A stretch of DNA of 64,000 nucleotides, from positions 64,001-128,000 of IMG/VR virus record IMGVR_UViG_3300017917_002349, one strand, 5' to 3'. Made by a program: the position numbers and the translations under genes. Each line of letters opens with the position of its first letter. Positions within the stretch are counted from its first letter, which is position 1. Below are positions 35,555-56,801 of the stretch, piece after piece. Source of the DNA: a virus. The notes under the pieces were generated by a model. That model was not told the origin of the DNA and did not search any database. It saw only the letters and a program-made list of their open reading frames with translations.

Positions 35555-36163
35555 ATGCAAGCACAGATTTTAGATTTGTTTCCTACCGCGGTGGTGCGCT
35601 ACAGCATAGACCCAGACCAATGGCGGGATCAACTACAGCAGCAGGTCATGGAACACACTGGCAGTCACAGTTATTCTGTGAATACCCACATACTGGATCT
35701 TTTTCCTGATTTGGCCAAGGATTTTCTGCTGTGTCTCAACGACTATGCAGCCAATGTATTGGCTCTGAGCGAACCACAGAGCCTACAGACCAGTTGGCTG
35801 AACCATAGCCAAGGCACAGACTATACACATGAACACATGCACAGCAATGCAGTATTGGCCTGTTGTTGGTATATTGATCTACCTCAGGGTCGAGATCGCA
35901 TAAGATTCCATAAACCAGACAGCAGAGCTTGGGGAGTATGGAGCATGATGTTTGACCTAGATCCTCAACGCCAACAGCGCAGTCCCTATGCCAAGAACAC
36001 CGTGGAACTGTCAGTGACCAATGGGGATCTGTTGGTTTGGCCCGCATGGTTGCTGCACAGCGTACCCGAGATGGGCCAACCGGGTCACAGATGGAGTCTG
36101 GCTGCTAATACCATGCCTCAATCAGGTTGGGGACGAGGACTACATGAATATAGAAATGATTAG
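35555..36163 (+). CDS. 2OG-Fe(II) oxygenase (TIGR02466-like)
   Basis: SWLN, HEHMH, WPAWLLHSV, RWSLAAN. Confidence 0.85.
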   Translation: MQAQILDLFPTAVVRYSIDPDQWRDQLQQQVMEHTGSHSYSVNTHILDLFPDLAKDFLLCLNDYAANVLALSEPQSLQTSWLNHSQGTDYTHEHMHSNAVLACCWYIDLPQGRDRIRFHKPDSRAWGVWSMMFDLDPQRQQRSPYAKNTVELSVTNGDLLVWPAWLLHSVPEMGQPGHRWSLAANTMPQSGWGRGLHEYRND

Positions 36164-41415: not shown

Positions 41416-41481
41416 TTAGTGCTCCTTGTTTGTTAGTGTATGTGTTGATTATACAGCCAAATGCTGGGTCTGTCAACCAAT

Positions 41482-41871
41482 TTAGACCCAGCTGTCTACC
41501 ATCAAGACAGGCTTCTTCAGCACTCGTTTGACGAAGTCCTCGGGCTCATCGTCAGTGCGTACTAACATAAAGCCCATGCTCTCTACTAGGTCTATTTCCT
41601 TGATCTCTAGGTCTATGCCCGCAGCTTCCAGGGCACGATTGATGTTAGTAAGCGCATACTTAACACCTGCGTCGAACGCCTCATACTCGCCGTCACCTAC
41701 ATCTTCTGCGTCATAGTCAAAACCCTCTACCATTGCGTTCAGATACTCTTGACCGTCTGCAACGATGAACTTGCCAATCTTCTTCCACTGGCGCTGGTCC
41801 TCGCAGTCGAAGTGGTCACAGCATTCGTTGAGATCAAAACTTGCGAATTCGTCGTAGTTTACTTTGGCCAT
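41482..41871 (-). CDS. Hypothetical acidic protein
   Basis: GGGAGCGAC RBS, own promoter. Confidence 0.8.
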   Translation of the reverse strand: MAKVNYDEFASFDLNECCDHFDCEDQRQWKKIGKFIVADGQEYLNAMVEGFDYDAEDVGDGEYEAFDAGVKYALTNINRALEAAGIDLEIKEIDLVESMGFMLVRTDDEPEDFVKRVLKKPVLMVDSWV

Positions 41872-41916
41872 TTGGGTCGCTCCCTGTTGTGTTAATATGT
41901 GTTAATTATAGCTGAA

Positions 41917-42201
41917 TCAATCACCGCTGTCAATCTGATAGCGATCCCCACACTCCGAGCAGGTGTATTCTGTAAGGCAACGCCCCACAGTCTGCGATGT
42001 ATACTTGTGTTTACAGGGCTGTCCTTCCTTGTCGAGTCGGACTTGACCTGTAGGGCGACCGAACATATACTGGCCGCCACAGTTGGTGCAACCAAAAGTA
42101 TCTGTGGCTGCATCATAGCCTGCGATCACGTGCTTATATTTGTTATCACCGGCCGGCACACGACCGCTACCGTTGCAAACTGGGCAAACGCCTTTTTCCA
42201 T
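41917..42201 (-). CDS. Cys-rich zinc-binding protein
   Basis: CPVCNGSG, CTNCGG, CSECG; start moved to ATG behind AGGAGCGAAA. Confidence 0.8.
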   Translation of the reverse strand: MEKGVCPVCNGSGRVPAGDNKYKHVIAGYDAATDTFGCTNCGGQYMFGRPTGQVRLDKEGQPCKHKYTSQTVGRCLTEYTCSECGDRYQIDSGD

Positions 42202-42256
42202 CTTTCGCTCCTTACTATTCACTATACCTATAGTATAGCACCGCAGGCCCAATCTG

Positions 42257-42568
42257 TCAACCAATCTTCTTGATCTTCCTATCCAAAGATTCCTGGATCT
42301 CTCGTGTGGCTTGATCTAGCAGTTGCCCGCGGGTGTGGACGTCGCTGTTGCAGAACTGCCACATCTTGAACGCATCCCCTCTGAGTCCCATCAAGATCCC
42401 TTCGTAGTCCCGGTAGGAGCAGCAGGCCCAGAGACTCTGAGGACGATAGGTGTAGAAGTCATAGTCACGCTCTGTGTTGTGCTGGGTGACTATGCGTCGG
42501 GCCGTGCTCTGCAGTCGGTAATACTTCTGCATGTGCCCGGACTTTTGATCGTAGACTACCCACCCCAT
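42257..42568 (-). CDS. Hypothetical protein (N-terminus resembles 55108-55413)
   Basis: MGWVVYDQKS start coupled to the upstream stop. Confidence 0.7.
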   Translation of the reverse strand: MGWVVYDQKSGHMQKYYRLQSTARRIVTQHNTERDYDFYTYRPQSLWACCSYRDYEGILMGLRGDAFKMWQFCNSDVHTRGQLLDQATREIQESLDRKIKKIG

Positions 42569-42915
42569 CAGTCCAACCTCGATCCTGCGTAGGCTTGGAA
42601 ACCATACCGCTTGAACACCTCTGCCGCTGCCTCTGCACCTGCTTCCAGGGTGTCCACGTTCTGGCAACCGAACTTGCTGGGATTCCACATCTGCAGACCG
42701 CCGCTGTAGGACGGACGGATGTCGCACTCTTTCAGTGCGCGACCGATCTTGGTGTTGCCTTTGACACCGTAGATGTTTACCCAGGCGAAACCACAGGCGA
42801 AACGATCTTGACCTCCCAGGACTTCCTGGAAGTATTTCTGTGCAGCAGCGTAGGCCGCTTGCTGTGCTTCTTGGACGATTGCAGGGATCTGCTCGGGGGT
42901 TGCTGTGATAGTCAT
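42568..42915 (-). CDS. Hypothetical protein
   Basis: ACGFAWV..SRLD; AGGAGCCC RBS. Confidence 0.8.
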   Translation of the reverse strand: MTITATPEQIPAIVQEAQQAAYAAAQKYFQEVLGGQDRFACGFAWVNIYGVKGNTKIGRALKECDIRPSYSGGLQMWNPSKFGCQNVDTLEAGAEAAAEVFKRYGFQAYAGSRLD

Positions 42916-42968
42916 TTGGGCTCCTTGTTGTCTAAGTGTGTGTAGTATACTGTGAATTGGCTGCTGTG

Positions 42969-43199
42969 TCAACCAAAATGTTTCAGTAGCCCGCCAAGGC
43001 ATAGGGTTATGGCCACAGCATTAATCACCATCTGCGGATAGTTCTTGACCCTAACAGTCCAGATGAAATAGGCTGTGCCACCTAGCAGTCCCATAAGAAT
43101 ATTCCACGGATGTAGCTGCGGGAAGTAGTTCATCAGCAGGTACATGACTAGGATGAACGCCGTGCCCACCCATTGGATGATGTCGTTGATGTCTCTCAT
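42969..43199 (-). CDS. Small three-TM membrane protein
   Basis: QW.GT, PWN; resembles 36631-36864. Confidence 0.75.
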   Translation of the reverse strand: MRDINDIIQWVGTAFILVMYLLMNYFPQLHPWNILMGLLGGTAYFIWTVRVKNYPQMVINAVAITLCLGGLLKHFG

Positions 43200-43309
43200 A
43201 GAGCAGCCACGTTGGCCAACACCGCGGCAGTGATCAATAGACCGGCTTGGATGACGCCAGTGATCCAGCCCAGGTAAATCACAGTCAGTGCACCGATGAG
43301 TTTCAACAT
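43196..43309 (-). CDS. 37-aa hydrophobic peptide (not in ORF track)
   Basis: MLKLIGALTVIYLGWITG... behind AGGAGCGAAC and a promoter. Confidence 0.7.
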   Translation of the reverse strand: MLKLIGALTVIYLGWITGVIQAGLLITAAVLANVAAL

Positions 43310-43376
43310 AGTTCGCTCCTAAGTTGTTTAGTTAGTGTGTATATAATAGCATCACTGAACCAAAATGTCAACCAAA

Positions 43377-43745
43377 TTATGTGTGGCTTTTCTGCAACAG
43401 TTCTGAGTCCGGGCTGCGGATCACGAAAGATTCTGTGGGGAATCTCTGCTGTATGCTCTTGAACAGCTCATCTTGGTTGCGCCCCTGACCTAGGAACTGC
43501 TGGGTGTCAGAGCGATAGGCATAGAAGGTATCCTCGTGGCACTCCAATTGGATCTGGATCCTAGGAGCTTCCACGGGAGGTTCTGCTGCAGGCTCTGGGA
43601 ATACGTCGGGGTGTAGATCTCTCAGTTGCTGATCCTTGATTCCCAATCGTCGCATCAGCTGCGTGAATGCTGACAGCATGAACAGCTCACAGAGCTTCCA
43701 ACCTACTATTGTGCCTAGGCTGATGCCTATGAGGAAATCAATCAT
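43377..43745 (-). CDS. Hypothetical protein with N-terminal TM
   Basis: Coupled ORF, QFLGQG. Confidence 0.7.
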   Translation of the reverse strand: MIDFLIGISLGTIVGWKLCELFMLSAFTQLMRRLGIKDQQLRDLHPDVFPEPAAEPPVEAPRIQIQLECHEDTFYAYRSDTQQFLGQGRNQDELFKSIQQRFPTESFVIRSPDSELLQKSHT

Positions 43746-44071
43746 TAGGTTCTCCGGGGTTTGAGCAGAGCCTGGCTTTCCTTGCGCAGTAGTCCCGCTC
43801 TGCGGTACATTTCATCTGCGGCCCGGTTCATGCTTTCACTTCGAGCTTCGGCTAGCTTGGTGCCGCCGAACTCTCGATCGATGTAGTATTGGATGAGGCT
43901 GTTCTTGATCATAGAAGGTAGATCCATGCCCGTGTCCTCGGGTACGATAAAGCGCACAGGGCAACGACCCCATCCACCGTACTCTACGAATTCTGCATAC
44001 CAACGTCTATGATCTTTGTTGTAGGGGTCGAAGGCCACTAGGGGCCTGCACAAGAACTCAAGTTTGCTCAT
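43745..44071 (-). CDS. Hypothetical protein
   Basis: RPLVAFDP..HR, WGRCPVRF; promoter 44112-44140. Confidence 0.75.
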   Translation of the reverse strand: MSKLEFLCRPLVAFDPYNKDHRRWYAEFVEYGGWGRCPVRFIVPEDTGMDLPSMIKNSLIQYYIDREFGGTKLAEARSESMNRAADEMYRRAGLLRKESQALLKPRRT

Positions 44072-44163
44072 TTATCTATCTGGATCCTCTTGGGTCTATA
44101 TTATATATCTTATTATATACAAAGTATTGGTCAAAGTCAACCTACTAGCAGCGGGGCGGTGAT

Positions 44164-44237
44164 AAAAAAACCCACTGTACGTGCATACAGTGGGTCCAAG
44201 TTACCGCCGCCGGGAGCGAATCGGTTTAGGCAGTAAC
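44164..44237 (-). ncRNA. 3'UTR anti-RBS hairpin 1 plus intrinsic terminator (candidate regulatory RNA)
   Basis: GUUACUGCC/GGCGGUAAC outer stem, CCG/CGG inner stem, loop AUUCGCUCC; then ACCCACUGUA/UACAGUGGGU plus U-tract. Confidence 0.7.
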
Positions 44238-44531
44238 AGCCGCTGTCTTCGCGACAGTGACCTTGACACCTGCTTTGGGTGCAGGATTCTTTTTCTCGCA
44301 GTAGGCGATGGCAGCTTGGATAGCGGCATTGCCCGAGCCAAAGCCCACGGACTTGAGATGCTGTACAGCTTCAGCCTTGGTCATCTCGTTGGGCAGCTCT
44401 ACGAGATCCACATCAGTATGACCGTTCTTAGCGAGGATCTTGATGCGCATCACATCATTGGCAAAACGTAGCTTGGTCTTGCCTTCAAGGGTTGAAACGC
44501 CTGCAACAGCAAATTTCTTATCAGTAGCCAT
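44226..44531 (-). CDS. Hypothetical basic protein
   Basis: FAVAGVS..RFAND..GHTDVDLVELP..MTK; own promoter; RBS GGAGAU. Confidence 0.8.
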   Translation of the reverse strand: MATDKKFAVAGVSTLEGKTKLRFANDVMRIKILAKNGHTDVDLVELPNEMTKAEAVQHLKSVGFGSGNAAIQAAIAYCEKKNPAPKAGVKVTVAKTAAVTA

Positions 44532-44613
44532 TTTCAAATCTCCAAAAGTGTGTGTATGAATCTGCCAATCCTTTTATTGGCATAGTTTACTATAGCACAA
44601 CTATCCAAGTATG

Positions 44614-44805
44614 TCAACCGATCGGTTGCCCAATTTGTGGAATCACTTGGATAGTCACGCTTTCCTTCTCGTCTAGGGCGGCGATAAACTCGTCATCATA
44701 GACCAGATCCTGCATGGCCAAATCAATCATTGATTCGACCCGATCCAGATCTGCTTGGCCTGGGCCAGAGCAGATCACGGTAAATGTGTAGGCAAATGTT
44801 CTCAT
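44614..44805 (-). CDS. Hypothetical protein
   Basis: Coupled ORF. Confidence 0.7.
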   Translation of the reverse strand: MRTFAYTFTVICSGPGQADLDRVESMIDLAMQDLVYDDEFIAALDEKESVTIQVIPQIGQPIG

Positions 44806-45422
44806 CCTATCAAACTACGGCGCTGTTCAGCACCATCCTTGATCCATTCTGTGAGCTCTTCTTCGTTCTCACGCTCCCATTCACGGATGCTCTCCGAGAT
44901 ACCAAATGCTTCGTCCAACTCCGGATAGTTCTGCTCGATCTCGTCGGCACCCATGCCTTCTAGACTGAAATCATCGCAGGAGCCTTCAGAGTATTCGCCA
45001 GCAAATGCCATACCACCTTCATAGAACAGGGCATTGACACGGAAACCCAGTTGCTCGAGCTTCTGGTAAGCATTCACGGGTGGAGCCCATGCTGAGTCGA
45101 AGCAGGTGTGTAAGATCCGACCATCTGGATGGATATCCTGATTGCCCGATTCGCCTACATCCCATTTGGTGCCCCACTCATTGGTGCAGAAATCATACCA
45201 GTTGCCGTAGCCATACTTCTCTACATTGCGTCGAGTCTGTGCTTCCAGAGCCTGCTGTTTCTCGTCGTCACCGTAGGAACCACTCATAGTTTCTGTGAGT
45301 TCTTTGGGCACAGGAATGAACTCTTGCAGGAACTCTCCCCGCTCAAGTGCATCGTAGGCCCGCTTGATCATCGCTGGGTCATCGTGTTCTAGTGTGACGT
45401 TATTGTTGCACCAATTCGGCAT
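44802..45422 (-). CDS. DUF1281/YubB (Api92-like) ferredoxin-fold protein
   Basis: MPNWCNN, WYDF..WGTKWD, FDSAWAPP. Confidence 0.8.
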   Translation of the reverse strand: MPNWCNNNVTLEHDDPAMIKRAYDALERGEFLQEFIPVPKELTETMSGSYGDDEKQQALEAQTRRNVEKYGYGNWYDFCTNEWGTKWDVGESGNQDIHPDGRILHTCFDSAWAPPVNAYQKLEQLGFRVNALFYEGGMAFAGEYSEGSCDDFSLEGMGADEIEQNYPELDEAFGISESIREWERENEEELTEWIKDGAEQRRSLIG

Positions 45423-45456
45423 AGTCGCTCTCCTAAGTCAAGTTAGTATTATACAG

Positions 45457-45681
45457 TCAACGGCTCAAAATGTCAACCAGTTTTTGGTTCTGGAAATCTT
45501 TGTATCTGCGATCCAATAAGGAGTCTACGCTGTCCACGAGGGTCTGTTCCATGAGTGTGGCATTTCTGCCACAGATCTGTTCCACCGTCCGCAGGATCTT
45601 GTGCTGTGCCATGGGGCTGTATTCACCGGACTCCAGGGCCTCTACGGCTCTGCGAATGTATTCATGTTCTTGGGGGGTCAT
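45457..45681 (-). CDS. Hypothetical protein
   Basis: Early-array ORF. Confidence 0.65.
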   Translation of the reverse strand: MTPQEHEYIRRAVEALESGEYSPMAQHKILRTVEQICGRNATLMEQTLVDSVDSLLDRRYKDFQNQKLVDILSR

Positions 45682-45892
45682 AGTCTTTCACCATACGGTA
45701 TAGGGGTTCAATTTCTTCACAGTCTACAGCAGAGAATTCGTCATCTCTCCAATCCACGAACTCTGTGCGGACTGGATCTCCATAGTTGCCATCATAGGCT
45801 AGGCTCAGTGCTTCCTCTTCCGAGTCCGCTTCGATCTCGTAGTATTCATCGATAACAGCGGCACGAGCTAGGGTGAACTTGAATCTAGCCAT
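45662..45892 (-). CDS. Hypothetical protein
   Basis: IEADSEEEA motif. Confidence 0.7.
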   Translation of the reverse strand: MARFKFTLARAAVIDEYYEIEADSEEEALSLAYDGNYGDPVRTEFVDWRDDEFSAVDCEEIEPLYRMVKDYDPPRT

Positions 45893-46131
45893 CAGTAATC
45901 CGCCGTGACACGACCGTTATCATAGGTAAGGAATACCTTGCCCGTTTCCACTTGGCCTGTGCCAGCTTCGTCGAAGTAGGTTACCTTATAGCAGAACTGA
46001 CCGCCATTGGTGATACCTACAAACTCTGCGGATTCAAAACTAGCACCTGTGTAACCACTGACTGCTAGAGCACGGGCCAGGCCCTGCCTAGTGAATGTGG
46101 TTAAGGTCTTGAGCGTGTCTGCTGTGATCAT
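45892..46131 (-). CDS. Hypothetical protein
   Basis: Coupled ORF. Confidence 0.7.
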   Translation of the reverse strand: MITADTLKTLTTFTRQGLARALAVSGYTGASFESAEFVGITNGGQFCYKVTYFDEAGTGQVETGKVFLTYDNGRVTADY

Positions 46132-46352
46132 TAGGCACCCCCGTAGTAGATCGCATCCTCATCGGCTGCATTCTCAGCGTATTCTGCGGGGTCCTCATCA
46201 CAATCCTCGCTAAGGATACGCTGGACTTCTTCTGGCTTCAACTCTAGGACGCGGGCGATAGTCAGCACGGTCTGTGCGTCCTGCCCAAAATCGTCACCCA
46301 TGTCGTGGGCCATTTCCTGCACTTCTATTTCCAAATTGCTGAAAAATCCCAT
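46131..46352 (-). CDS. Hypothetical acidic protein
   Basis: AGGAGAGCGAC RBS; start moved to 46352. Confidence 0.75.
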   Translation of the reverse strand: MGFFSNLEIEVQEMAHDMGDDFGQDAQTVLTIARVLELKPEEVQRILSEDCDEDPAEYAENAADEDAIYYGGA

Positions 46353-46401
46353 TGTCGCTCTCCTAAGTATGTGTATATTATAACACACCCTATCCAATCT
46401 G

Positions 46402-46731
46402 TCAACCGATTTCTGCCACGTGTTTGCAGTTGCCACGGAAGGTGAATCCCGGACAGGTGCAGGTCTTGTCCTCTAGATTAACAAAGTAGGAGTTGCCTTT
46501 GGATCCCTTGATCTCCACGGTCGCATTCTTGGCTGCATTCTCAGGGGCCTTGAATGGATTGGGCTTGACTGTTTCGAACTTGCGTCCCCGCTTGTCGAAT
46601 CCTTTGATTCCGTTCTTGAAATACTTGATCTCTTTGGTATCATGCCGTTGGTAGGCAATCAGCGTGGTGCCATCTAGTAGGTAAACATGGGGATGGAAGG
46701 CACCCCCAGTGGTTTCACGCAGTGCTTCCAT
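46402..46731 (-). CDS. SWIM zinc-finger protein
   Basis: GSKGNSY..CTCPGF..CKH. Confidence 0.85.
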   Translation of the reverse strand: MEALRETTGGAFHPHVYLLDGTTLIAYQRHDTKEIKYFKNGIKGFDKRGRKFETVKPNPFKAPENAAKNATVEIKGSKGNSYFVNLEDKTCTCPGFTFRGNCKHVAEIG

Positions 46732-46997
46732 TAACGGTAGTCCTTACGATCACCAAATCGTTCGTTCCAATCGTAGCCAGCCATGTATTCAGCCACTGAC
46801 TCTTTATCGGAGACTTCAACGCGGGGTCCGGAGTCGCTACCAACACCGCCATAGTGCGGCTGTGGACGACGACCGTAGTAGGAATCGGCACTGCCACGAT
46901 CATACAAGCAACCGTGAACTCCACGCACAAACGGAAAACCCTTAAGGGCCCGGACAACACGCTCTTGCTCTGTTTCAGTTTCTAGTTTAATATACAT
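46731..46997 (-). CDS. Hypothetical protein
   Basis: YDRGSADSYYGR; AGGAGCGAAG RBS. Confidence 0.8.
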   Translation of the reverse strand: MYIKLETETEQERVVRALKGFPFVRGVHGCLYDRGSADSYYGRRPQPHYGGVGSDSGPRVEVSDKESVAEYMAGYDWNERFGDRKDYR

Positions 46998-47061
46998 CTT
47001 CGCTCCTGTTATCTAACTATGACTCAAGTATAGCACCAAAATGGCACCCTGTCAACCAAAA

Positions 47062-47382
47062 TCAACGAGGAATACGAACTACGATGCCCTGTGGCGTAGA
47101 AACAACAGCATAGCCCTTGCTCTCAAGAATGCTCACGGCCTCACGAGCCATGGCGCGATCTCTCTTTATGGCACCCTCAAGTTTCACAGCGATGAATTTC
47201 TTGCGGTAGTTGATGTAGCTCTCAGCGTAGGCGAACGCTGTATCCAAAAGGTCCAGAGCTCGCTGTGCCATGCACTGCTGCTGGGGGGTGTAGGTGCAGG
47301 CCAGTTCTCTGTTGCGGTAGTAGGCATTGAGGGCTGCCCCGCGTTTGTTGTCATCTGCATCACGATAGTTTAGTTGTTTCAT
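47062..47382 (-). CDS. Hypothetical protein
   Basis: AGGAGCGUG RBS, own promoter. Confidence 0.75.
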   Translation of the reverse strand: MKQLNYRDADDNKRGAALNAYYRNRELACTYTPQQQCMAQRALDLLDTAFAYAESYINYRKKFIAVKLEGAIKRDRAMAREAVSILESKGYAVVSTPQGIVVRIPR

Positions 47383-47457
47383 TTCACGCTCCTTATGTTC
47401 ACTGTACCTACAGTATAACACCGAAGAATCAAAATGTCAACCAAAATGTCAAAGACC

Positions 47458-47817
47458 CTAGACTATCAAGGGTTTCTTGTAGGGGTCCCTACGATCACTC
47501 CAGATCTTGTAGCTGTGGTTGGCACGTACCCAATCTGCAAATGTCTGTGGCTCAGTCTTGAACCAGGCCTGGATATCGTCTGGACCAATATCTTCCGTGC
47601 TGGTAAACACGTAGATTTCGTAGTGACGATGCTGGTTATACTGTGCTCGAAGTTTCAGTGCTGTAAGGTTAAAGCCCATGGGCTTCTCTACCTTCTTGCT
47701 TTGTTTTATCGAATCAAACAGATGGTTCTTAGCCCAGTTGTCAGGGTGGTGTTCCGTGATCTCTTCAAAGAACTCCACCCCCTCACAGTCCCAAGAGACT
47801 ATGTAATAACGTGTCAT
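47458..47817 (-). CDS. Hypothetical protein
   Basis: WDCEG, LRAQYN.HRHYEIY. Confidence 0.75.
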   Translation of the reverse strand: MTRYYIVSWDCEGVEFFEEITEHHPDNWAKNHLFDSIKQSKKVEKPMGFNLTALKLRAQYNQHRHYEIYVFTSTEDIGPDDIQAWFKTEPQTFADWVRANHSYKIWSDRRDPYKKPLIV

Positions 47818-47987
47818 GAGTTTACTGTGTTGTGCGGATCGAATTCTTCCTCAGAACCAACTCCATTGGAGTCTAACCATTGATAGATCAGTTCCAGAGG
47901 ACAGTCCAGTTGCAGGGCGATGCTCTTAGGGCCATAGCCCTCGATGTAGAGCTGCTCGATGTCATAGGCTAGATCGCTGAGACTCAT
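47814..47987 (-). CDS. Small HTH-like protein (57 aa, not in ORF track)
   Basis: GYGPKSIALQLDCPLELIYQW; coupled on both sides. Confidence 0.65.
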   Translation of the reverse strand: MSLSDLAYDIEQLYIEGYGPKSIALQLDCPLELIYQWLDSNGVGSEEEFDPHNTVNS

Positions 47988-48109
47988 CGTGCAGTCTCCT
48001 TCATGACTTCCTGGGTCTTACCCACAGCCTTATCGATAGCGGATGCTACGCCTGATACTCCAACAGTGGCCACAAACATACCTGCAATGAATGCCATTAG
48101 AATTTTCAT
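47984..48109 (-). CDS. 41-aa membrane-anchored peptide (not in ORF track)
   Basis: AGGAG RBS; MKILMAFIAGMFVATVG. Confidence 0.7.
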   Translation of the reverse strand: MKILMAFIAGMFVATVGVSGVASAIDKAVGKTQEVMKETAR

Positions 48110-48118
48110 GACTACTCC

Positions 48119-48208
48119 TTAAACAAACGCCCAATAAGAACCTACGGCTATTGCATAAACAGCAACAGCGTAGCCCAACATCTTTAGATCTTCTTTGAAC
48201 AAATCCAT
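48119..48208 (-). CDS. 29-aa hydrophobic peptide (not in ORF track)
   Basis: AGGAGCAA RBS behind promoter 48239-48267. Confidence 0.6.
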   Translation of the reverse strand: MDLFKEDLKMLGYAVAVYAIAVGSYWAFV

Positions 48209-48327
48209 GCTTGCTCCTTGAACATTTACGATACCTATAGTATACAACCAATCTAGGATTTTGTCAACTACGCACACGTATAACAGCGGGGCCTGTAGCT
48301 AAAAAGCCACATCCCCTGGCACTCCTG

Positions 48328-49533
48328 TCAAGCTGTCTCTCTTTCGTAGATCACAGTCTGTCCAAAGGGTGCTTCTGCCTTGTCGTTGCCTTTGACAACG
48401 AATATGGTATCGCAGTAGTCCTCTTCACCCCAACCACCACAAGGGTAGCCGTCCGTGAACATGATAAACTTCTTAGGACGAATGTCATTCTCCTGCATGA
48501 ACTGCCAGTTGACTTCGAAGTCTGTGCCACCACCGCCCTGAGGTTCGTAGTCTAACAGGTCTTCACTGTTATCATGTGTGATCTCTTTGTGGTTATAGAT
48601 CTCTGTGTCAAAGCACCACAGATTGACCTTGAAGTCCTCGAACTGATCCATGATGCCCTTGATCTCGCCTAAGAAAATAGTTGCATCTTCTTCACCGATA
48701 CTACCACTCATGTCCATAGAGACCGCTACGTCGATGGTAGTGGCTTCCTTCATGCCCGGAAGGATAGCACCTGAGTGCATACTCTTGCGATTCACACGCT
48801 GGAAGGAATAGTCATTGCGGACGATGCTTTGGATCTCTTGGCGAACCAACTCGCGCCACGAAATCTTAGGCTCAGTCATAGACTTGATCATACGCATGAT
48901 GCCTGCGGGGGTCTTACCTGCACCAGCGGCCGCGGCACTCTGGATCATAGCCTCTTTGATCTCATCACGGATACGCTGAGCATCTTCCTTGCTCATGCCA
49001 GGACGATTGCCTTTGCCTTCTTTGTCGTCGCCTTCACCACCTTGGCCGTCACCTTCTTTGATGTGCTCGTCAAGCAGATCGCCCAATTGCTTGAGCAGTT
49101 GATCCATAGGGATCTTCTCTGCCTTCTCATAGAGATCGTCGTAGATCTCTTCCCAGGCCATGCCACGGTACTTGGCATCATAGCAGATCTTGACCTGTGT
49201 GATTTTCTCGCCGATACGCTCGTCTACGAGGATCTGGTTCACAGCGAAGTCCTGTGCGATGTTGCTGAGCTGACGATCGCGACTACCAACACGGCCAAAG
49301 TGATCAAACACGCAGTGACAGATCTCGTGACCAAACAGGAATTCAAGTTGTTTAGGCGAGAGCTTCTCTACGAACTTGGTATTGTAGTAAAAGTCTCGTC
49401 CATTGGTTGCGGCAGTAGGACACCACTCGTCTGCGTTAATAAGACGCATACGGGTTGCCATGTTGCCAAAGAAAGGAGCCTTGAGCAGTAGGCCTACTCG
49501 GGCTGTGATAAGTTTTTCTACGATTGGATCCAT
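48328..49533 (-). CDS. Metallopeptidase-vWA protein (DUF2201-like)
   Basis: HEICH, DMSGS MIDAS, GGGTDF, FTDG. Confidence 0.9.
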   Translation of the reverse strand: MDPIVEKLITARVGLLLKAPFFGNMATRMRLINADEWCPTAATNGRDFYYNTKFVEKLSPKQLEFLFGHEICHCVFDHFGRVGSRDRQLSNIAQDFAVNQILVDERIGEKITQVKICYDAKYRGMAWEEIYDDLYEKAEKIPMDQLLKQLGDLLDEHIKEGDGQGGEGDDKEGKGNRPGMSKEDAQRIRDEIKEAMIQSAAAAGAGKTPAGIMRMIKSMTEPKISWRELVRQEIQSIVRNDYSFQRVNRKSMHSGAILPGMKEATTIDVAVSMDMSGSIGEEDATIFLGEIKGIMDQFEDFKVNLWCFDTEIYNHKEITHDNSEDLLDYEPQGGGGTDFEVNWQFMQENDIRPKKFIMFTDGYPCGGWGEEDYCDTIFVVKGNDKAEAPFGQTVIYERETA

Positions 49534-49590
49534 TAGTCGCTCTCCTTACTGTATGTATCTATTATAGCACCTCGGGCCCTAGTTGTCAAC

Positions 49591-49719
49591 CAAAAAGAAA
49601 CCGGGCAGTGTTGCCATACTACAACACCCCCGGCACCCTCCGCCAGTGACTAGATGGCGCGGAAAAGGGTGGGCTAGAGCCCTGGGGAGCCCTAGCCCTA
49701 GGCTACGGTGAGGTCTTAA
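49591..49719 (-). ncRNA. Structured 3'UTR of the MoxR gene with self anti-RBS and terminator
   Basis: UUAAGACCUCAC, then three consecutive hairpins, the last ending in UUUCUUUUU. Confidence 0.6.
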
Positions 49720-50804
49720 TTGTTCTCCATAGCCGTCAACACATACTTGCCGAAACGCTTGTGGAACTCGTCGAAGCTCTGCATCTTGGTAGCGTCAAAG
49801 GGCAGGTTGTAGTTGGTGAGTCCAGTCTTGGCACCCATGACAACCAGCTCAGTCGGGAAGTTATCCATCATGTAGCGGAAGAACAGGTCAGCCTTGTCGT
49901 CAAACTTCTTGTCCTTTTTCTCAGCGGCATCCTTGAGCTCGTAGCAGAGGCTAACGGTCAATGAATACATGGCACTGACTTCTTTGATAGCCAAGTCCTT
50001 GACCTTGCCTTCGAGGATGTCGGAAGCCTTAGGCAATTTGCCTGCGATCTTGCGGTGAGCCATAAACTTCACAGCCAAACCGTCACCGATAGCACCTGCG
50101 ATCAAGTTCTGCAGGGTCTCGTTGTCAGTGTCATCGTCATTGAGCAGGTCGCTGACGAACACCCAAGAACGAGGAGTCGCAAATGACTTGCTAGGGCTCT
50201 TAGGATCGAAGTCATAGAGGTCTTGCTTGGCAAAACCCACATAACCAACGACCTCAGGGTGGATGTCGTTCATAACAGCCCACTCTTGGAAGTCATCGAA
50301 GTCTACCTTCATCTCCAAGTGGACGAAACGGTTTGCCAACGGAGCAGGCATACGGTAGGTAACACCACGGTCGCCTTCACGGTTACCAGCGGCAACGATG
50401 TCCACGCCCTTGGGCAGTTCATAGGTGCCTACACGGCGGTTAAGGATCAACTGATAGGCCGCGGCTTGCACGGCAGGAGGAGCGGAGTTAAGCTCGTCCA
50501 AGAAGATCAATGCAGTGGAGTCTGCATTGGTAGGCAGTTCTGCAGGAGGAGCCCAGACCATCTTGCCCTGCTCTGCATTGTAATAGGGGATGCCCTTGAT
50601 GTCTGTGGGTTCCCAAAGAGCCAGACGAACGTCAATGACCTCACGGTCCATCTCAAGACCGATCTGCTTGACGATATCGCTCTTACCGATACCTGGAGGG
50701 CCCCACAGGAATGTAGGACGGCGAACTTTGATCGCCTTACGGATCGCCTTTTTGGCGCTCTTAGGGCCACATTGACGAACGGAAATATCTTGTGCTTTTG
50801 CCAT
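49716..50804 (-). CDS. MoxR-like AAA+ ATPase
   Basis: GPPGIGKS, FLDELN, AAGN, LANRF, TPRSW; adjacent vWA gene. Confidence 0.92.
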   Translation of the reverse strand: MAKAQDISVRQCGPKSAKKAIRKAIKVRRPTFLWGPPGIGKSDIVKQIGLEMDREVIDVRLALWEPTDIKGIPYYNAEQGKMVWAPPAELPTNADSTALIFLDELNSAPPAVQAAAYQLILNRRVGTYELPKGVDIVAAGNREGDRGVTYRMPAPLANRFVHLEMKVDFDDFQEWAVMNDIHPEVVGYVGFAKQDLYDFDPKSPSKSFATPRSWVFVSDLLNDDDTDNETLQNLIAGAIGDGLAVKFMAHRKIAGKLPKASDILEGKVKDLAIKEVSAMYSLTVSLCYELKDAAEKKDKKFDDKADLFFRYMMDNFPTELVVMGAKTGLTNYNLPFDATKMQSFDEFHKRFGKYVLTAMENN

Positions 50805-50879
50805 TTAAGACCTCACTAAAGTTAGAACAAACAAACTGCTTTCCCAGTATCATTATTGTAGCACCTCTCGGTGCAGTTG

Positions 50880-51515
50880 TCAACCACTGATTTTCACGTA
50901 GTTGAGCTGTGTGGCGCCGTTGCCACGGTGTTGCTTGATCTTGCCCTTGATGCGCACAGTGCCCTGGAGTTCCTTGGTATGCCAGAAATCCACGATGCTG
51001 TCACCCATACGTGCATCCATGCGGTACTTGCCATATTCTGCGTTGTACCGTGTGCGGATCACAGTGACATCACCCACGATGGTATCACCTACAGCGCCCG
51101 GGAGCGGTTGGGAACTGAAGATCTCTCGCTTGAGTTCAGCATGCGCAGCATCACGCAAGGCCACTGAGGGCAAACAGCTGATCACAGCGAAATCGTAGAT
51201 ATCACGACCCGTGAACTCTTCTTTGGCTGCAATCCGCATGGCAGTCTGCTGGAAATCATTCATCTTGCCTGTGAGAGCCAACAGCGTGTATGATTTGAAG
51301 TGATCCCGGGCTGAGCGTCCTGCAGCGTAGTCGGCTTCAGTGATCTGGGTGAAATCGTTGTCGCGGAGCCATTGCTTGACCATGGCTTTGTTGGCTCGCT
51401 TGTCGACCACGTAGCTTTCGTCGATATAACGGCCTTTGTCCTCTTTGAGATACTCACCGTTGATGCGTTGAGCTGCTGCCGCGGCACCCCAAACTTGATC
51501 TGCTGTAAATTGCAT
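50880..51515 (-). CDS. Hypothetical protein with C-terminal OB-fold-like region
   Basis: AGGAGCGAU RBS; TQLNYVK end. Confidence 0.8.
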   Translation of the reverse strand: MQFTADQVWGAAAAAQRINGEYLKEDKGRYIDESYVVDKRANKAMVKQWLRDNDFTQITEADYAAGRSARDHFKSYTLLALTGKMNDFQQTAMRIAAKEEFTGRDIYDFAVISCLPSVALRDAAHAELKREIFSSQPLPGAVGDTIVGDVTVIRTRYNAEYGKYRMDARMGDSIVDFWHTKELQGTVRIKGKIKQHRGNGATQLNYVKISG

Positions 51516-51622
51516 CTATCGCTCCTTGCTATTCACTATACCTCTAGTATACGATCTTTTGGCCCAGTTGTCAACCGTTTTGGGGAGTGCCGGCGGGTGT
51601 GGCTTTTCTGCAACATATGGTC

Positions 51623-51696
51623 AAAAAAACAGGGCCTAGTAAGGCCCTGTCAAAACCGCCCCGGGAGCGAATCGGCTTGGTTTTGAGGAGCGAACC
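51623..51696 (-). ncRNA. 3'UTR anti-RBS hairpin 2 plus intrinsic terminator (candidate regulatory RNA)
   Basis: GUUCGCUCCU, then UCAAAACC/GGUUUUGA outer stem, CCG/CGG inner stem, loop AUUCGCUCC; then ACAGGGCCU/AGGCCCUGU plus U-tract. Confidence 0.72.
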
Positions 51697-51972
51697 TTAG
51701 GCTACGGTCCAACCAGCTGCCTTGGCCATGTAACCAAGTGCTACGATTTCACGGCTGGGTTGACCCAACTCGTACTCAGTGACTGTGACACCGTTGCCTG
51801 CTGTGCGGCTGTTTGCGTAGACAGCATAACCACCTTGACGGATGCGGCTAGCTTCTGCGGCTAGATTCTTTACACCAAAACGCTTGCTGGCCTGAGCGGC
51901 TGTAAGAGTTTCACCATTGTAAAGAGCTTGGAAGACCTTGAAAGTCTTGGTTTCGGGATTGAATCGCTTCAT
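51697..51972 (-). CDS. Winged helix-turn-helix protein
   Basis: GETLTAAQASKRFGVKNL..SRIRQGGY plus beta wing; TTGCAA-17-TATAGT promoter. Confidence 0.75.
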   Translation of the reverse strand: MKRFNPETKTFKVFQALYNGETLTAAQASKRFGVKNLAAEASRIRQGGYAVYANSRTAGNGVTVTEYELGQPSREIVALGYMAKAAGWTVA

Positions 51973-52069
51973 GTTTTTTCCTCTAAATGTTATAGCTGAT
52001 TACTTGTTTTTCAGCGTCCTTATAATATACTATAATCCAAAATATATTGCAAGGATCAATATTACCAAA

Positions 52070-52270
52070 TTACTTTTTACTAACCTTTACGCTGGGCACA
52101 GCCATGATAACAGCCGCAGCCAACCAGGTGTAAAAGGTATAGGGCAGCACATGATTAGGCCAGAGATGCTGTCCAAATTCGTTAATGGCCCAGATAAAGG
52201 CCAATGGCCCAATGGCTACAAAGAACACTACCACAGCCACCAAGCCCACGATAGTCATGAGTTTATTCAT
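52070..52270 (-). CDS. Small membrane protein
   Basis: Two hydrophobic segments. Confidence 0.7.
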   Translation of the reverse strand: MNKLMTIVGLVAVVVFFVAIGPLAFIWAINEFGQHLWPNHVLPYTFYTWLAAAVIMAVPSVKVSKK

Positions 52271-52493
52271 CGTCTTTCTCCTGTGCAGCAGCCAAGGCAG
52301 CGATTTCAGCGTCGATGGCCCGCTCTTTCTTCTTACCAGCCAGTGCAGTGCCTCGCTGATACACCTGCCAATAATGATCCCCGCAGTAGCTCTTGCCCTG
52401 AAGCACAGCTGAACCGCAGTAGTGGATCGAACCCCTTAGGGGGTCCTGATCCGGACCAATCCACTGGCACTCACGGATTGGAATGTCTACCAT
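52263..52493 (-). CDS. Small Cys/His protein (GcrA C-terminal-like motif)
   Basis: CQWIG..YCG..SYC..H. Confidence 0.6.
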   Translation of the reverse strand: MVDIPIRECQWIGPDQDPLRGSIHYCGSAVLQGKSYCGDHYWQVYQRGTALAGKKKERAIDAEIAALAAAQEKDDE

Positions 52494-53614
52494 TAATGCA
52501 TCCCCTTCATAACAGTTACGCGAGCATGACCTTCCCAATTGCTGGGGAACGCCTTGCGCAGTTGTGCTACTTTGAGCACGGTACGTAGGCTGAGTTCACG
52601 CATGCTGGCACGATTGGTCTCGATGAAATTAACCACTTCGTCCTTGGCGATGTCCTCAAGCTCGTAGTCATCTAACATACCGTCCTTGACGATCTGCTTG
52701 ATGCGCAAGACCTTCTCGCGGTCAGTGTCCATGCGCAGATCGATGTAGTGGCAACGGCTTTCAAGAGCGGCAAGGTGATCCTGCAGTTTCTTAGAACGCA
52801 CATTCTCAAACTTCAAGTTAGTGATAAAGATAGCACCACCCTTGAACTCGAAACGATCTGGAATACCCTCGCTTCGCAGGATACGGCTGTCAGTGTTCCA
52901 CGAGATAGTACGCTTCTTGGAACTGTCCAGGGCCGCTTTTAAAATATTAAGCGAGATGTCGTCCAAAAGAATGCTGTCACAGTCGTCAAACACAAGAATG
53001 CTCTTAGAGTCTGAGAACTTGTAGAGCTTAGAGTACAGACCAATGGCACTCATAGCACCCTTGACGATCTCGTACTTGGGCTTGCGTTCGCCTAGCGTGT
53101 TGAACAGATCGTCCTTAGACAGTACTTCTTCAACACCAAAGCTCTTGCCCACACCAGGAGGGCCTGTGACGATCATGGCACGTACATCGCCTGCTTTCAC
53201 AGCCTTGGTCATGTCCTTGAGGATCTCAAAACGCACACGGGTACGCTCGATGATCTGTTCATCGGTCTCGTGTGCTACAGCAGAGTCAGCGACCTTGATC
53301 TGTGTGAAGTCTGTGACCTCGGCACCCTTGGTGCTCTTGTTCTTGAGCGCAGTCAACATGCTGACAGCCTGGGGCTGGCGAGTGGCCTGTACAGTACCTT
53401 CCACGGCATAGTCTCCTTGACGGCAACGGATGCGGATTGAACGATCTGGGAACGGGATACTGCCTGCGGGACTTACGCTGGTACCATCGACAGTGACATA
53501 GCCTTCGCCCGTCTTTGAGACCTTGTAGTCTTCGACCAACTCGAATGAATAGCCGGCAACATTAGTGGGTTGACCCTTGATGTTGTACCAGCCCTCGGTG
53601 AAAGTAATACGCAT
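52493..53614 (-). CDS. P-loop/AAA ATPase
   Basis: GPPGVGKS, VFDDCD, FITN, ALESR; AGGAGCGAAA RBS. Confidence 0.85.
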   Translation of the reverse strand: MRITFTEGWYNIKGQPTNVAGYSFELVEDYKVSKTGEGYVTVDGTSVSPAGSIPFPDRSIRIRCRQGDYAVEGTVQATRQPQAVSMLTALKNKSTKGAEVTDFTQIKVADSAVAHETDEQIIERTRVRFEILKDMTKAVKAGDVRAMIVTGPPGVGKSFGVEEVLSKDDLFNTLGERKPKYEIVKGAMSAIGLYSKLYKFSDSKSILVFDDCDSILLDDISLNILKAALDSSKKRTISWNTDSRILRSEGIPDRFEFKGGAIFITNLKFENVRSKKLQDHLAALESRCHYIDLRMDTDREKVLRIKQIVKDGMLDDYELEDIAKDEVVNFIETNRASMRELSLRTVLKVAQLRKAFPSNWEGHARVTVMKGMH

Positions 53615-53695
53615 TTTCGCTCCTGTGTATTTGTTGAACATTCTCGTATTATATTACAGATAGGGGCTGTTGTCAACCCCTAACAGTAATAACCC

Positions 53696-54130
53696 TTATG
53701 CGTCAAGGGCTTCTTGTATGCCAAACGCCTTCTCTAGATCTACAAACCCGCCCTCGCAGCCGTAGTATTCTACATACCAATTGCCGTCCAAACGGTAGAT
53801 ATAGTTGTATTCTTCAAACTGGCTGTCACGCTGATAAGCAGCAAAGTCTGCCCAAACCCGGCACTCACAGCCTGTCTCGCCACGATCGCGTCCGTAGGCT
53901 GTGGTCCAATTGTCGGGTTTGTTGCGATCGTCAAAGTCGTGGGCCTGACCGATCTCAGGGCGCAGGCTGCTGATATCGCCCAAGAGCATGAGAGCGTAGA
54001 TCTTGGCACGATCCTGGTAGTGTTCCTGCAGGATCTTACCGTTGTTGTCCAGGTAACCGTCCCAGTGGCAGTAGATCTGCATGATCTCACCGTTGGGCTG
54101 TTCCATCGCGATAGTGCTTCGTGTTGCCAT
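53696..54130 (-). CDS. Hypothetical protein
   Basis: MATRS..YCHWDGY..YGRDRGE; AGGAGCGAAC RBS. Confidence 0.8.
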   Translation of the reverse strand: MATRSTIAMEQPNGEIMQIYCHWDGYLDNNGKILQEHYQDRAKIYALMLLGDISSLRPEIGQAHDFDDRNKPDNWTTAYGRDRGETGCECRVWADFAAYQRDSQFEEYNYIYRLDGNWYVEYYGCEGGFVDLEKAFGIQEALDA

Positions 54131-54198
54131 AGTTCGCTCCTAGTTGTTTAACTCAGTCTAGAGTATAACACGGGCCGGAGCCCGTGTCAACCACATTG

Positions 54199-54552
54199 TT
54201 AAATACCCTGGAACTCTGTAAGGGCTTTCTGTGCGTCTGCGTCCAACATACAGGCGTCCATGGCCCGTTGCTTTTCCTCTGCTACGGTCTTGCGATATGC
54301 TTCCAACTCTGCTTGTTTGGCTTCCATAGCAGGCCACACTACATCTGAAGGGTTAAGGTAAGGACCCGTGTAGTCTACCTTGTCTTCCTTAAGGGTGATC
54401 TCACCTGAGCGGATGCCCTCAAATACCATGCCCCACGTGGGTTGCTGAGGACGGCCTGTGGGTCCGAACAGTTCTTGTGCTTTAGATTGGACCTTCTCCG
54501 CAGCGATCTCGTTGAGTCGGCGGACGAAATACTCGCGTTGTGCTTGTTCCAT
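54199..54552 (-). CDS. Hypothetical protein
   Basis: AGGAGCGC RBS, own promoter. Confidence 0.8.
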   Translation of the reverse strand: MEQAQREYFVRRLNEIAAEKVQSKAQELFGPTGRPQQPTWGMVFEGIRSGEITLKEDKVDYTGPYLNPSDVVWPAMEAKQAELEAYRKTVAEEKQRAMDACMLDADAQKALTEFQGI

Positions 54553-54624
54553 AATGCGCTCCTTAAAAGTGTGTGTGATATAGTAAGTTGCTCTGCTTCC
54601 TTACTATGTCATTATTATATGCTC

Positions 54625-55107
54625 TTACGAGCCTGTTGTCAACCGGATTTGGTGTGGCTGATCAGCCACAGTGGCAAAGTGCTCGATGAAGATGTGATGA
54701 GCATCACCCGATCGTTGGATGCAGCGATCAGCAGCACGATAGAGATCCAGCCACGTGGGTCCCGGGATCATCTCGTAGACAGGCTGTTCGCCCCAATGAT
54801 CTCTGTAGCAGACTTCCACAGCAGCAGCATAGGGATGCTGCTGGTTCAGGTCCTCTACTTCAAAGATACTCCAGATTGAGCGCAGGCCCAGTTGCTGCTT
54901 GATGTCGCTGTAGTGATCCATCTTAGTGTCAAATGCAGCTTCATCCTGCTTGTAGGCATTCTCCAAGCCCTGCTCGAACTGACGGACGATTTTCAACAGC
55001 AGATCCCCCAGGGGCTGCTCTACGACCATACGCTGTAGATCACGCAGCTCGCAGAGGGTGTTGTGTACAGTTTTAAAGTCTTGTGAGTGAAGTGTCACGG
55101 TTTCCAT
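54625..55107 (-). CDS. Hypothetical protein
   Basis: TW.DLY.AAD..SGD.HHIFIE. Confidence 0.75.
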   Translation of the reverse strand: METVTLHSQDFKTVHNTLCELRDLQRMVVEQPLGDLLLKIVRQFEQGLENAYKQDEAAFDTKMDHYSDIKQQLGLRSIWSIFEVEDLNQQHPYAAAVEVCYRDHWGEQPVYEMIPGPTWLDLYRAADRCIQRSGDAHHIFIEHFATVADQPHQIRLTTGS

Positions 55108-55413
55108 TTACATGCTCCAATAGAGTTCAGATGAAGGATCGCAGCTACGGGGTGTGTTGACACTCTGTGTGAACTCAGCACCCGTCATCAAGTTACGCTT
55201 TGTGACACGCTGTTCTATCACTGAGTGATACCACGCAGCTTCCGCGGCAGCCATCCAGAACAGGGGGTCGTCTTCATGAGCATTGCTGCCCGGGTAGTAG
55301 GGAAAGTGACGCACATACTTCTTGTGCGCTCTAGTGATGGCAGCCTGTGCAGCCGGGTGGGTCTTGTAGCTCTTGACTATGGCAGAACTACGCTTGTCGT
55401 ATACGTACCACAT
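55108..55413 (-). CDS. Hypothetical protein
   Basis: NLMTG..NTPRSCDPSSELYWSM; AGGAGCGAC RBS. Confidence 0.8.
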   Translation of the reverse strand: MWYVYDKRSSAIVKSYKTHPAAQAAITRAHKKYVRHFPYYPGSNAHEDDPLFWMAAAEAAWYHSVIEQRVTKRNLMTGAEFTQSVNTPRSCDPSSELYWSM

Positions 55414-55467
55414 GGTCGCTCCTTGTTAACGTTACAGTGCGTATTATACACAGAAGAGTGGCGCCTG

Positions 55468-55788
55468 TCAACTACCACGCAGATCGGTGTTGTAGAATGG
55501 ACGCAGTTCGCGGATTAATTCACGCTCGCGAGCATGAGCCGCTGTCTTGCCTCGCACCAATTCCAAAGGCTCGATGCGGATCAGTTCTTTAGAATCATAG
55601 CTTCTCAACAGACGGCATAGAGCCCAGGTCTTGGCTTCAGTGCGAGCGCGATACCAGTGCTTGGCTGCCCGGCTACGTAGACTCTTTAGCACTGTGGTCT
55701 CTGTTTTGGCAGTAACACCAATGTAGACTCCCTCAGGGCCTGTGATCTGATATATGATGTGATTACGATCTGATCTCTTTGCTCGCAT
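55468..55788 (-). CDS. GIY-YIG-like nuclease domain protein
   Basis: IYQI..YIGVT, R..H, E.ELI, YN. Confidence 0.75.
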   Translation of the reverse strand: MRAKRSDRNHIIYQITGPEGVYIGVTAKTETTVLKSLRSRAAKHWYRARTEAKTWALCRLLRSYDSKELIRIEPLELVRGKTAAHARERELIRELRPFYNTDLRGS

Positions 55789-55873
55789 AGTCCGCTCCTT
55801 CACTATGCATATAGTATAACATCACCGGGCCAATCTGTCAACCAAAATAACAAAGACCCTACAGGGCCTCGGG

Positions 55874-56002
55874 TTATTGTACGTGATCCTCGATTAGTTG
55901 CGCGAGCTGCTCGACAGCCGCCTGCGCGGCATCGTCGTCTAAATTTGTGTGCTGCTGTAGCGAGGCTAATGCAGCGTAGAACTGTTGCTGTAGATCTGAC
56001 AT
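55874..56002 (-). CDS. Small hypothetical protein (42 aa)
   Basis: AGGAGCAC RBS behind promoter 56025-56053. Confidence 0.65.
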   Translation of the reverse strand: MSDLQQQFYAALASLQQHTNLDDDAAQAAVEQLAQLIEDHVQ

Positions 56003-56061
56003 AGTGCTCCTTGTGTAAGTGTTAATTATAGCACTCCCCGTCCAATCTGTCAACCAAAATG

Positions 56062-56377: not shown

Positions 56378-56454
56378 TGGTGGGCCCCCCGGGACTTGAA
56401 CCCGGACTCAACGGATTATGAGTCCGCTGCTTTAACCAATTAAGCTAAAGGCCC
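56378..56454 (-). tRNA. tRNA with CAT anticodon (probably Ile2/lysidine type, otherwise elongator Met)
   Basis: Cloverleaf, GACTCATAATC arm and GGGCC acceptor resembling tRNA-Ile2, CCA. Confidence 0.88.
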
Positions 56455-56468
56455 TGTGACTAGTGTAA

Positions 56469-56801
56469 TTAATCCTCTCTTGGGTGTGGTTGATTCACTT
56501 CTGGATCCCACTGTGTAGTGCGCTGCTGCTGCCCTAGTGTGACAAAACGATGTAGATCTTCCATGTGTTCTTGGAATATGTCAGGCACGGCAGCTGCTGC
56601 TCGCTGCATGTCATATGTGTGGGGATAGTGACGCAGCGCCCCGCGAGCACGATCACGTATGCCCGAGGGAATCCTGGGAGTCATCCGGGGATCGCAGAGC
56701 TCTTCCAGCAGCCTACGTGCCTGTTCAACAGCTCGATAACGTTCATCTGGTAAGGTCATGTCCCAATCTCTGCTTGATGATAATCTGCGCTTCTTAAGCA
56801 T
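56469..56801 (-). CDS. Hypothetical protein
   Basis: TLPDERYRAV..LRHYP; promoter 56808-56836. Confidence 0.75.
   Translation of the reverse strand: MLKKRRLSSSRDWDMTLPDERYRAVEQARRLLEELCDPRMTPRIPSGIRDRARGALRHYPHTYDMQRAAAAVPDIFQEHMEDLHRFVTLGQQQRTTQWDPEVNQPHPRED

Follow-up and report, generated by a model that had tools for sequence, protein, structure and literature searches.

What reads the extra bases that a virus adds to the ribosome-binding sites (RBSs) of a whole array of its genes? The question is raised by a stretch of 64,000 nucleotides, here called the window, which comprises bases 64001–128000 of the IMG/VR virus contig IMGVR_UViG_3300017917_002349 (161,938 bp, rated about 46% complete). 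Its minus strand carries an array of small genes (41416..56012), nearly every one of which has its own near-consensus sigma70 promoter, followed by a leader and the Shine–Dalgarno (SD) sequence AAGGAGCGA(A). An earlier interpretation made from the letters of the window (the sequence-only reading) had proposed that the CGA extension of this SD, a barcode of early genes, is the address of a trans-acting regulator. We report that a conserved hairpin encoded by the phage itself holds the exact complement of the barcode in its loop; to this extent the proposal gains support, although the regulator may act in cis as well as in trans, and the graded shut-off envisaged in the same reading is speculative. 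In the interpretation preferred here, an anti-SD RNA loop of the phage itself reads the barcode as an address, in an antisense circuit directed against ribosome sites; in our judgement this is evenly poised between right and wrong.

The cassettes of the array share a fixed order: ttttggTTGACA-N17-TATAAT or TATACT, a leader of about 20–25 nt, AAGGAGCGA(A), a spacer of 3–6 nt and the ATG. There are 22 promoters scoring 11–12 of 12 in 16 kb of the minus strand; strong terminators are few, with a handful of terminator-like sites for the 22 promoters. The genes of the block are termed early solely on account of their near-consensus TTGACA-N17-TATAAT promoters. Their leaders are A-rich and G-poor, in line with the composition given in the sequence-only reading.

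All 18 starts named in that reading carry the motif ascribed to them, 3–6 nt before the ATG and on the minus strand: GGAGCGA at eight of them, GGAGAGCGA at three, GGAGCG(T/C/G) at three and GGAGC at four. The full barcode is found as GGAGCGA at 41877..41883 (start 41871), 51519..51525 (start 51515) and 55416..55422 (start 55413), and as GGAGCGA(A) at 42205..42211 (start 42201), 43313..43319 (start 43309), 47000..47006 (start 46997), 53617..53623 (start 53614) and 54134..54140 (start 54130); the first coordinate of each site is the plus-strand position of the complement TCGCTCC. Where 4.4 copies of this heptamer would be expected, the window has 14, and none of 100 shuffles produced as many as 14. 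The variant GGAGAGCGA lies at 45426..45434 (start 45422), 46355..46363 (start 46352) and 49537..49545 (start 49533, the DUF2201 metallopeptidase/VWA gene), also on the minus strand. It has two extra bases between GGAG and ATG, so that the distance from GAGCGA to the start codon is the same as in the main class. Three of the 18 open reading frames (ORFs) are very short, namely those starting at 43309 (37 aa, hydrophobic), 48208 (29 aa) and 56002 (42 aa).

Within the contig, the barcode is largely specific to one class of genes. Over the whole contig, GGAG(AG)?CG is present in 12 of the 26 translation initiation regions (TIRs) that lie next to a sigma70 promoter and in one of the 182 other genes (Fisher 1e-11). 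The motif is thus not equally frequent outside the class, and GGAGA and GGAGG dominate at the other genes, as had been claimed for the core genes. The sole gene of the contig outside the block that carries the motif is at genome position 18826 (plus strand, outside the window); it codes for 350 aa and has AGGAGAGCGC before its ATG. A gene at 83177 of a complete 364-kb relative (G001) has a similar upstream sequence, with GGAGAGCGA.

Conservation was assessed across about 100 related IMG/VR contigs, which supplied 563 distinct GGAG cassettes next to promoters. The first position after GGAG is C in 80 per cent, the second G in 79 per cent and the third A in 54 per cent of the cassettes, and the information content at these positions is about 1 bit, compared with 0.1–0.3 bit in the surrounding leader. 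As C, G and A are kept after GGAG while the leaders diverge, selection appears to act on these positions, beyond the mere copying of cassettes. In G001, the barcoded sigma70-type promoters all lie in a single block of higher G+C content, the one that also contains the hairpins: 16 of about 29 promoters there have the barcode, compared with none of about 25 outside this block; it is therefore not a property of all sigma70-type promoters. The sister clade represented by G005 has both partners, barcoded neighbours and a hairpin with another outer-stem sequence.

The candidate reader is an invariant core of 15 nt, CCGAUUCGCUCCCGG, which contains the exact complement of the barcode and occurs twice in the window, on the minus strand. 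Hairpin A (51650..51686, core 51661–51675; covariance model score 56.6 bits) displays the 9-nt loop AUUCGCUCC on an inner CCG/CGG stem, which is itself enclosed by an outer stem; an intrinsic terminator with a 10-bp stem and a T-run follows directly on its 3' side (51621..51651). Hairpin B (44200..44237, core 44210–44224; 24.9 bits) has the same invariant core, its 5' arm overlaps the end of the upstream ORF, and the terminator directly 3' of it (44161..44197) has a 13-bp stem and a T-run. The two terminators that hairpins A and B directly precede have the best scores of all on that strand. In the common fold, the 3-bp CCG/CGG stem closes the loop A-UUCGCUCC within a longer outer stem that varies between lineages. 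The 9-nt loop is the exact complement of GGAGCGAA and is predicted to be unpaired with a probability of 0.74–0.93. From the 5' arm to the U-tract, the module measures about 79 nt. The loop includes UUCG, which fits YUNR, the U-turn motif typical of natural antisense loops. A further single-stranded UCGCUCC lies just upstream of hairpin A (51687–51693, minus strand); it is present in some lineages only (the window, L002, L010–L015, L022–L025 and L060).

The searched loci yielded 115 copies of the core CCGAUUCGCUCCCGG, all on the early-sense strand and none in the opposite orientation; nearly every relative has one to three of them. At least 119 IMG/VR stretches contain the exact 15-mer; in 78 distinct contexts it is part of a hairpin followed by a terminator, and the scan includes chance matches, as about 28 of 108 distinct contexts have no hairpin context. 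The outer stem covaries. In a model-fitted alignment, 90.6 per cent of the cells are paired, compared with 71.5 per cent in shuffles, and 80 double changes are seen as against 24; G–U pairs occur, and sliding the partner collapses the signal. For the class B hairpins, MAFFT and RNAalifold recovered the inner stem only, and this approach was replaced by an alignment-free comparison of own and swapped arms, in which the own arms pair better both in class A (p 6e-8) and in class B (p 4e-6).

The segment with which the loop can pair, GGAGCGAA, coincides with the conserved part of the SD; neither flank of the SD (AA on the 5' side, variable sequence on the 3' side) is matched by the hairpin stem. 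The predicted duplexes between loop and TIR reach -12 to -13 kcal/mol for perfect sites (-13.3 kcal/mol for the seed duplex at start 42201); GGAGCG(N) and GGAGAGCGA give about -10 kcal/mol and GGAGC gives -8.5. On the same sites, the values for the canonical anti-SD range from -6.5 to -8.4 kcal/mol. By inspection, CGA faces CAC of the canonical 16S tail and adds no anti-SD pairing, as had been stated in the sequence-only reading.

These data suggest the following mechanism. With the SD core GGAG and its 3' extension CGA(A), the TIRs of most promoter-proximal genes of the block are complementary over 7–8 nt to the apical loop A-UUCGCUCC. Lying on the strand of the block and before terminators, the two hairpins would form the 3' ends of early transcripts or an approximately 80-nt module derived from a 3' untranslated region (UTR). 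A loop paired with GGAGCGAA would mask the SD in competition with the 30S subunit, either in trans, by a stable 3'-end fragment, or in cis, on the transcripts that end at hairpins A and B. The phage would gain a private post-transcriptional handle on a regulon which, in relatives, would extend to a few late envelope genes. Pairing in vivo, repression, its timing and action in trans or in cis are all inferred here.

The genes that carry the hairpins are not themselves barcoded. Hairpin A is the 3' UTR of a gene for a 91-aa winged-helix protein (HTH_39; 51697..51972, minus strand), which has the SD AGAGGAAAA and an approximately 50-nt leader bearing a 5' stem-loop. Hairpin B is formed by the end and the 3' UTR of a gene for a 101-aa protein of unknown function (44226..44531, minus strand), with the SD UGGAGAUU and a long structured leader. 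Among 83 distinct leaders of these two families, none has the barcode; AAAGGAAAC- or AGAGGU-type SDs are used instead. The leaders (window 51975–52030 and 44535–44590, minus strand) are about 50 nt long and have a conserved, covarying 5' stem-loop, e.g. GCUGAA...UCAGC, and the -10 boxes are weaker or atypical in relatives (TAAACT). The transcripts of the hairpin-bearing genes may be stabilized or differently timed. No RNA chaperone or nuclease was found by Pfam and PHROGs among these genes and their neighbours.

The complementarity is longer in a second group of genes. A few genes of G001 that lie behind T4-late-type TAAATA boxes are also barcoded, and late genes in many relatives have TAAATA, a short leader and then CCGGGAGCGAA(A)UCG(G)AUG, a pattern present in 45 of the 80 loci listed for it. 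These leaders complement 14–15 nt, i.e. the whole hairpin core including the invariant CCG/CGG stem. Such late-type genes code for a CsgF-like protein (L145:12443-12939), a DUF4337 membrane protein (L187:10491-11095), a 93-aa membrane protein (L170:8039-8334) and an autotransporter (L139:435-2502); late genes with the long match are absent from the present partial contig. Because the late leader also complements the inner stem, target and regulator could form complementary hairpins, the classical antisense layout, and this hairpin-to-hairpin match would account for the invariance of the inner stem. Such envelope products point to a host of the diderm type. What the barcode marks is a regulon and not strictly early genes: the promoter-proximal class is enriched, and the label 'early' of the sequence-only reading is too narrow, since some genes with late promoters in relatives carry the motif.

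Several observations weigh against a reader made of RNA. Two of the four transcription units of the window (51574–49600 and 44140–41000) do not end in a barcode hairpin; a model based purely on cis action fails for this reason, and action in trans must be assumed. Both the seed and the barcode are invariant across the clade, which is why no compensatory change between seed and target was found, and the sole loop variant, GACUCG, was not accompanied by a matching shift in the GGAGCGAG targets in the covariation test. The seed of 8 nt is short, and cofolding of whole molecules is noisy and gives a moderate separation, with a median of -6.4 kcal/mol for barcoded TIRs and -3.3 kcal/mol for other TIRs. 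The RNA and its timing are predicted from the sequence. Finally, the barcode is confined to one hyperplastic block in which cassettes are duplicated, so that shared ancestry feeds the counts.

One alternative explanation needs no regulator: the extension would be a by-product of promoter–leader–SD cassettes recombining in a hyperplastic block, or a locally favoured strong RBS, and the match with the loop a coincidence. Cassettes of this type are known in T4-type phages as promoter early stem-loop (PeSL) elements, in which a near-perfect sigma70 promoter, an SD and a start codon precede small ORFans in hyperplastic regions; their definition includes a stem-loop before each promoter, and they have been discussed as recombination substrates (PMC2839356, PMC4122927). 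The block studied here likewise has a near-consensus sigma70 promoter, an SD and an ATG before the small variable genes of a hyperplastic region, but it lacks a stem-loop terminator upstream of each promoter, and no extended SD with a complementary RNA has been described in the PeSL literature. Recombination is also suggested by near-identical cassettes that recur within single genomes (five copies in L074, for example) and by the confinement of the barcode to one block of G001. However, C and G after GGAG hold at about 80 per cent even though neither the sequence nor the length of the leader from the -10 box to the SD is constant, and unrelated late genes outside the block carry a longer form of the motif. 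Moreover, the hairpin-bearing genes avoid the barcode, and we estimate the probability that an 8-mer complement falls by chance within an invariant 15-nt core at about 1e-4 to 1e-3. We consider this explanation unlikely.

The barcode could also be read by a protein of the phage or its host, such as a RegB-like endoribonuclease or a RegA-like repressor acting on GGAGCGA, the hairpins being a terminator enhancer or a nut/boxB-like site. The early SDs of T4 are biased to GGAG and are cut by RegB, so that a temporal class is marked by its SD sequence and subjected to class-specific post-transcriptional control (PMC3014915). The gene class is marked through the SD here as well; the reader in T4 is a protein nuclease, whereas the candidate reader here is an RNA. 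A conserved hairpin right before a terminator does resemble an antitermination site, and a protein factor could be encoded in the part of the genome that the contig, about 46% complete, does not cover. In the sequenced part there is no match to RegB (PF10715) or RegA (PF01818), and a protein reader leaves unexplained both the complementarity of loop and barcode and the 14–15-nt complementarity of the late leaders. It appears quite improbable to us.

Less probable still, and by our estimate very unlikely, is a motif that acts at the level of DNA, where a protein, e.g. the winged-helix product encoded upstream of hairpin A, would bind GGAGCGAA(TCGG) whichever way it is oriented, at the hairpin loci as well as downstream of promoters. 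The SD sites and the hairpin cores are indeed the same duplex sequence in opposite orientations, and the winged-helix gene adjoins hairpin A. A DNA site, however, would need neither the covarying stem with G–U pairs in which the reverse-oriented full-core sites always lie, nor the constant position of the cores on the transcribed strand before a terminator, and a single asymmetric 8-bp half-site per gene is atypical for winged-helix dimers. We give hardly any credence to an unusual host 16S 3' tail (…GAUUCGCUCCUU) pairing with the extension, for which speaks the resemblance of the loop GAUUCGCUCC to the canonical GAUCACCUCC at seven of ten positions, since other genes of the same genomes keep GGAGA, GGAGG or GAGGU-type SDs, the CCUCC core of the 16S tail is almost universal, and a scan of 185,579 species genomes for GGNTGGATTCGCTCCTT yielded scattered matches with none at a 16S end among the 120 listed (a weak negative).

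The proposed anti-SD loop has partial precedents. In phages P1 and P7 the c4 RNA, and in P22 the sar RNA, are structured phage RNAs whose exposed loops pair with the RBS region of phage mRNA and block translation; c4 is produced from the same transcription region as its targets and controls the icd-ant operon via two specific sites. The putative hairpin RNA described here is similarly encoded among its candidate targets and would oppose a loop to the SD. Unlike c4, a single 8-nt loop here matches about 10–20 promoter-proximal genes per genome, plus late genes over 14–15 nt. There is no sequence relation between c4 and the hairpins, which match no Rfam family; tRNAs alone were retrieved at E<=1 in the 36–64 kb region. 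Staphylococcus aureus RNAIII, the Rsa RNAs (UCCC loops) and RsaE/RoxS present a C-rich, anti-SD-like loop beside a terminator and have many mRNA SD targets, features that the present hairpins, with their candidate targets, would share. These small RNAs use the generic SD core of host genes, whereas the viral targets bear a private CGAA 3' extension, which separates them from the other genes of the phage.

If the pairing is real, the virus tags a whole gene class inside the RBS and reads the tag with its own small RNA. Class-specific control in T4 is exerted by proteins (RegB and RegA), and regulons run by RNA have been described in bacteria; in the literature searched, we found neither RNA-run control of a phage temporal class nor a dedicated RNA loop that matches an SD extension used throughout a virus. 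The barcode and the hairpin would constitute a compact natural pair of an orthogonal RBS and an anti-RBS RNA, open to direct reporter testing, and their combination offers a signature for annotating regulons in hundreds of uncultured giant-phage contigs.

Complementarity between an SD and another RNA segment also occurs within a single gene of the same block. The gene for a MoxR-type ATPase (50804–49716, minus strand) has a private SD, GUGAGGUCUUAA (50805–50816), which is complementary to its own stop region (49708–49719). The two segments covary across 60 distinct pairs from orthologues, for example GGUCUUAA with UUAAGACC, GGUCUCA with UGAGACC, GGUCA with UGACC and GGGGGUUUU with AAACCCCC; the SD core GAGGU is conserved across relatives. 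Own pairs reach -16.5 kcal/mol compared with -12.5 kcal/mol for swapped pairs (p 2e-9). This covariation shows that pairing of SD and anti-SD RNA is under selection in this clade, and it suggests that the MoxR mRNA may form a 5'–3' closed loop or fold-back. The best analogue is the fold-back of hok mRNA (fbi/tac), a long-range pairing between the 3' end and the TIR in a toxin–antitoxin setting, with activation dependent on processing. Unlike that of hok, the MoxR pairing involves the stop codon and bridges an ATPase gene of 1.1 kb. Such covariation is rare comparative evidence for 5'–3' pairing of an mRNA in a bacterial system. The wider picture, in which one loop would address 10–20 early genes and, by a full hairpin-to-hairpin match, late envelope genes as the master post-transcriptional switch of a private RBS address system, with the MoxR SD/stop closed loop beside it, is put forward tentatively, and we lean slightly against it.

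At the nucleotide level, the contig matched none of the cultured phages. The DnaB-type helicase and the DUF2201 protein that it encodes share 43–51% identity with their counterparts in the giant phages PA5oct, Phosso and Atu_ph07. IMG/VR contains over 100 related contigs with DUF2201 identities of 70–88%, among them near-complete genomes of 353–364 kb. PA5oct and Phosso, distant relatives that are in culture, lack the barcode, the hairpin and the MoxR SD/stop pairing alike; the published description of PA5oct lists TTGAC/TATAATA promoters and four non-coding RNAs, and no extended SD. The G+C content of the window is about 50 per cent between 36 and 62 kb and about 40 per cent in the rest; the same contrast as that of window positions 36000–62000 is seen in the complete 364-kb relative, where the barcoded block has a G+C content of 0.48–0.49 compared with about 0.40. 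A transfer-messenger RNA call by ARAGORN (56378–56674) overlaps a tRNA-Met, is not supported by Rfam and is probably spurious.

Two further sequence elements recur in the block. Some of the TATACT promoters have a 14-bp palindrome, ACTATAGGTATAGT, behind them that overlaps the -10 box as well as the start site. Its copies lie on the minus strand at 42232–42215, 47412–47395, 48239–48222 and 51546–51529, and one copy is symmetrically changed to ACTGTAGGTACAGT. The palindrome could be an operator or a 5'-end hairpin. The second element is composed of GTTGCAGAAAAGCCACA and, behind it, CCGGCACTCC; it is repeated in the intervals that separate a terminator from the promoter after it, at 51590–51610 of the window and after the hairpins in relatives.

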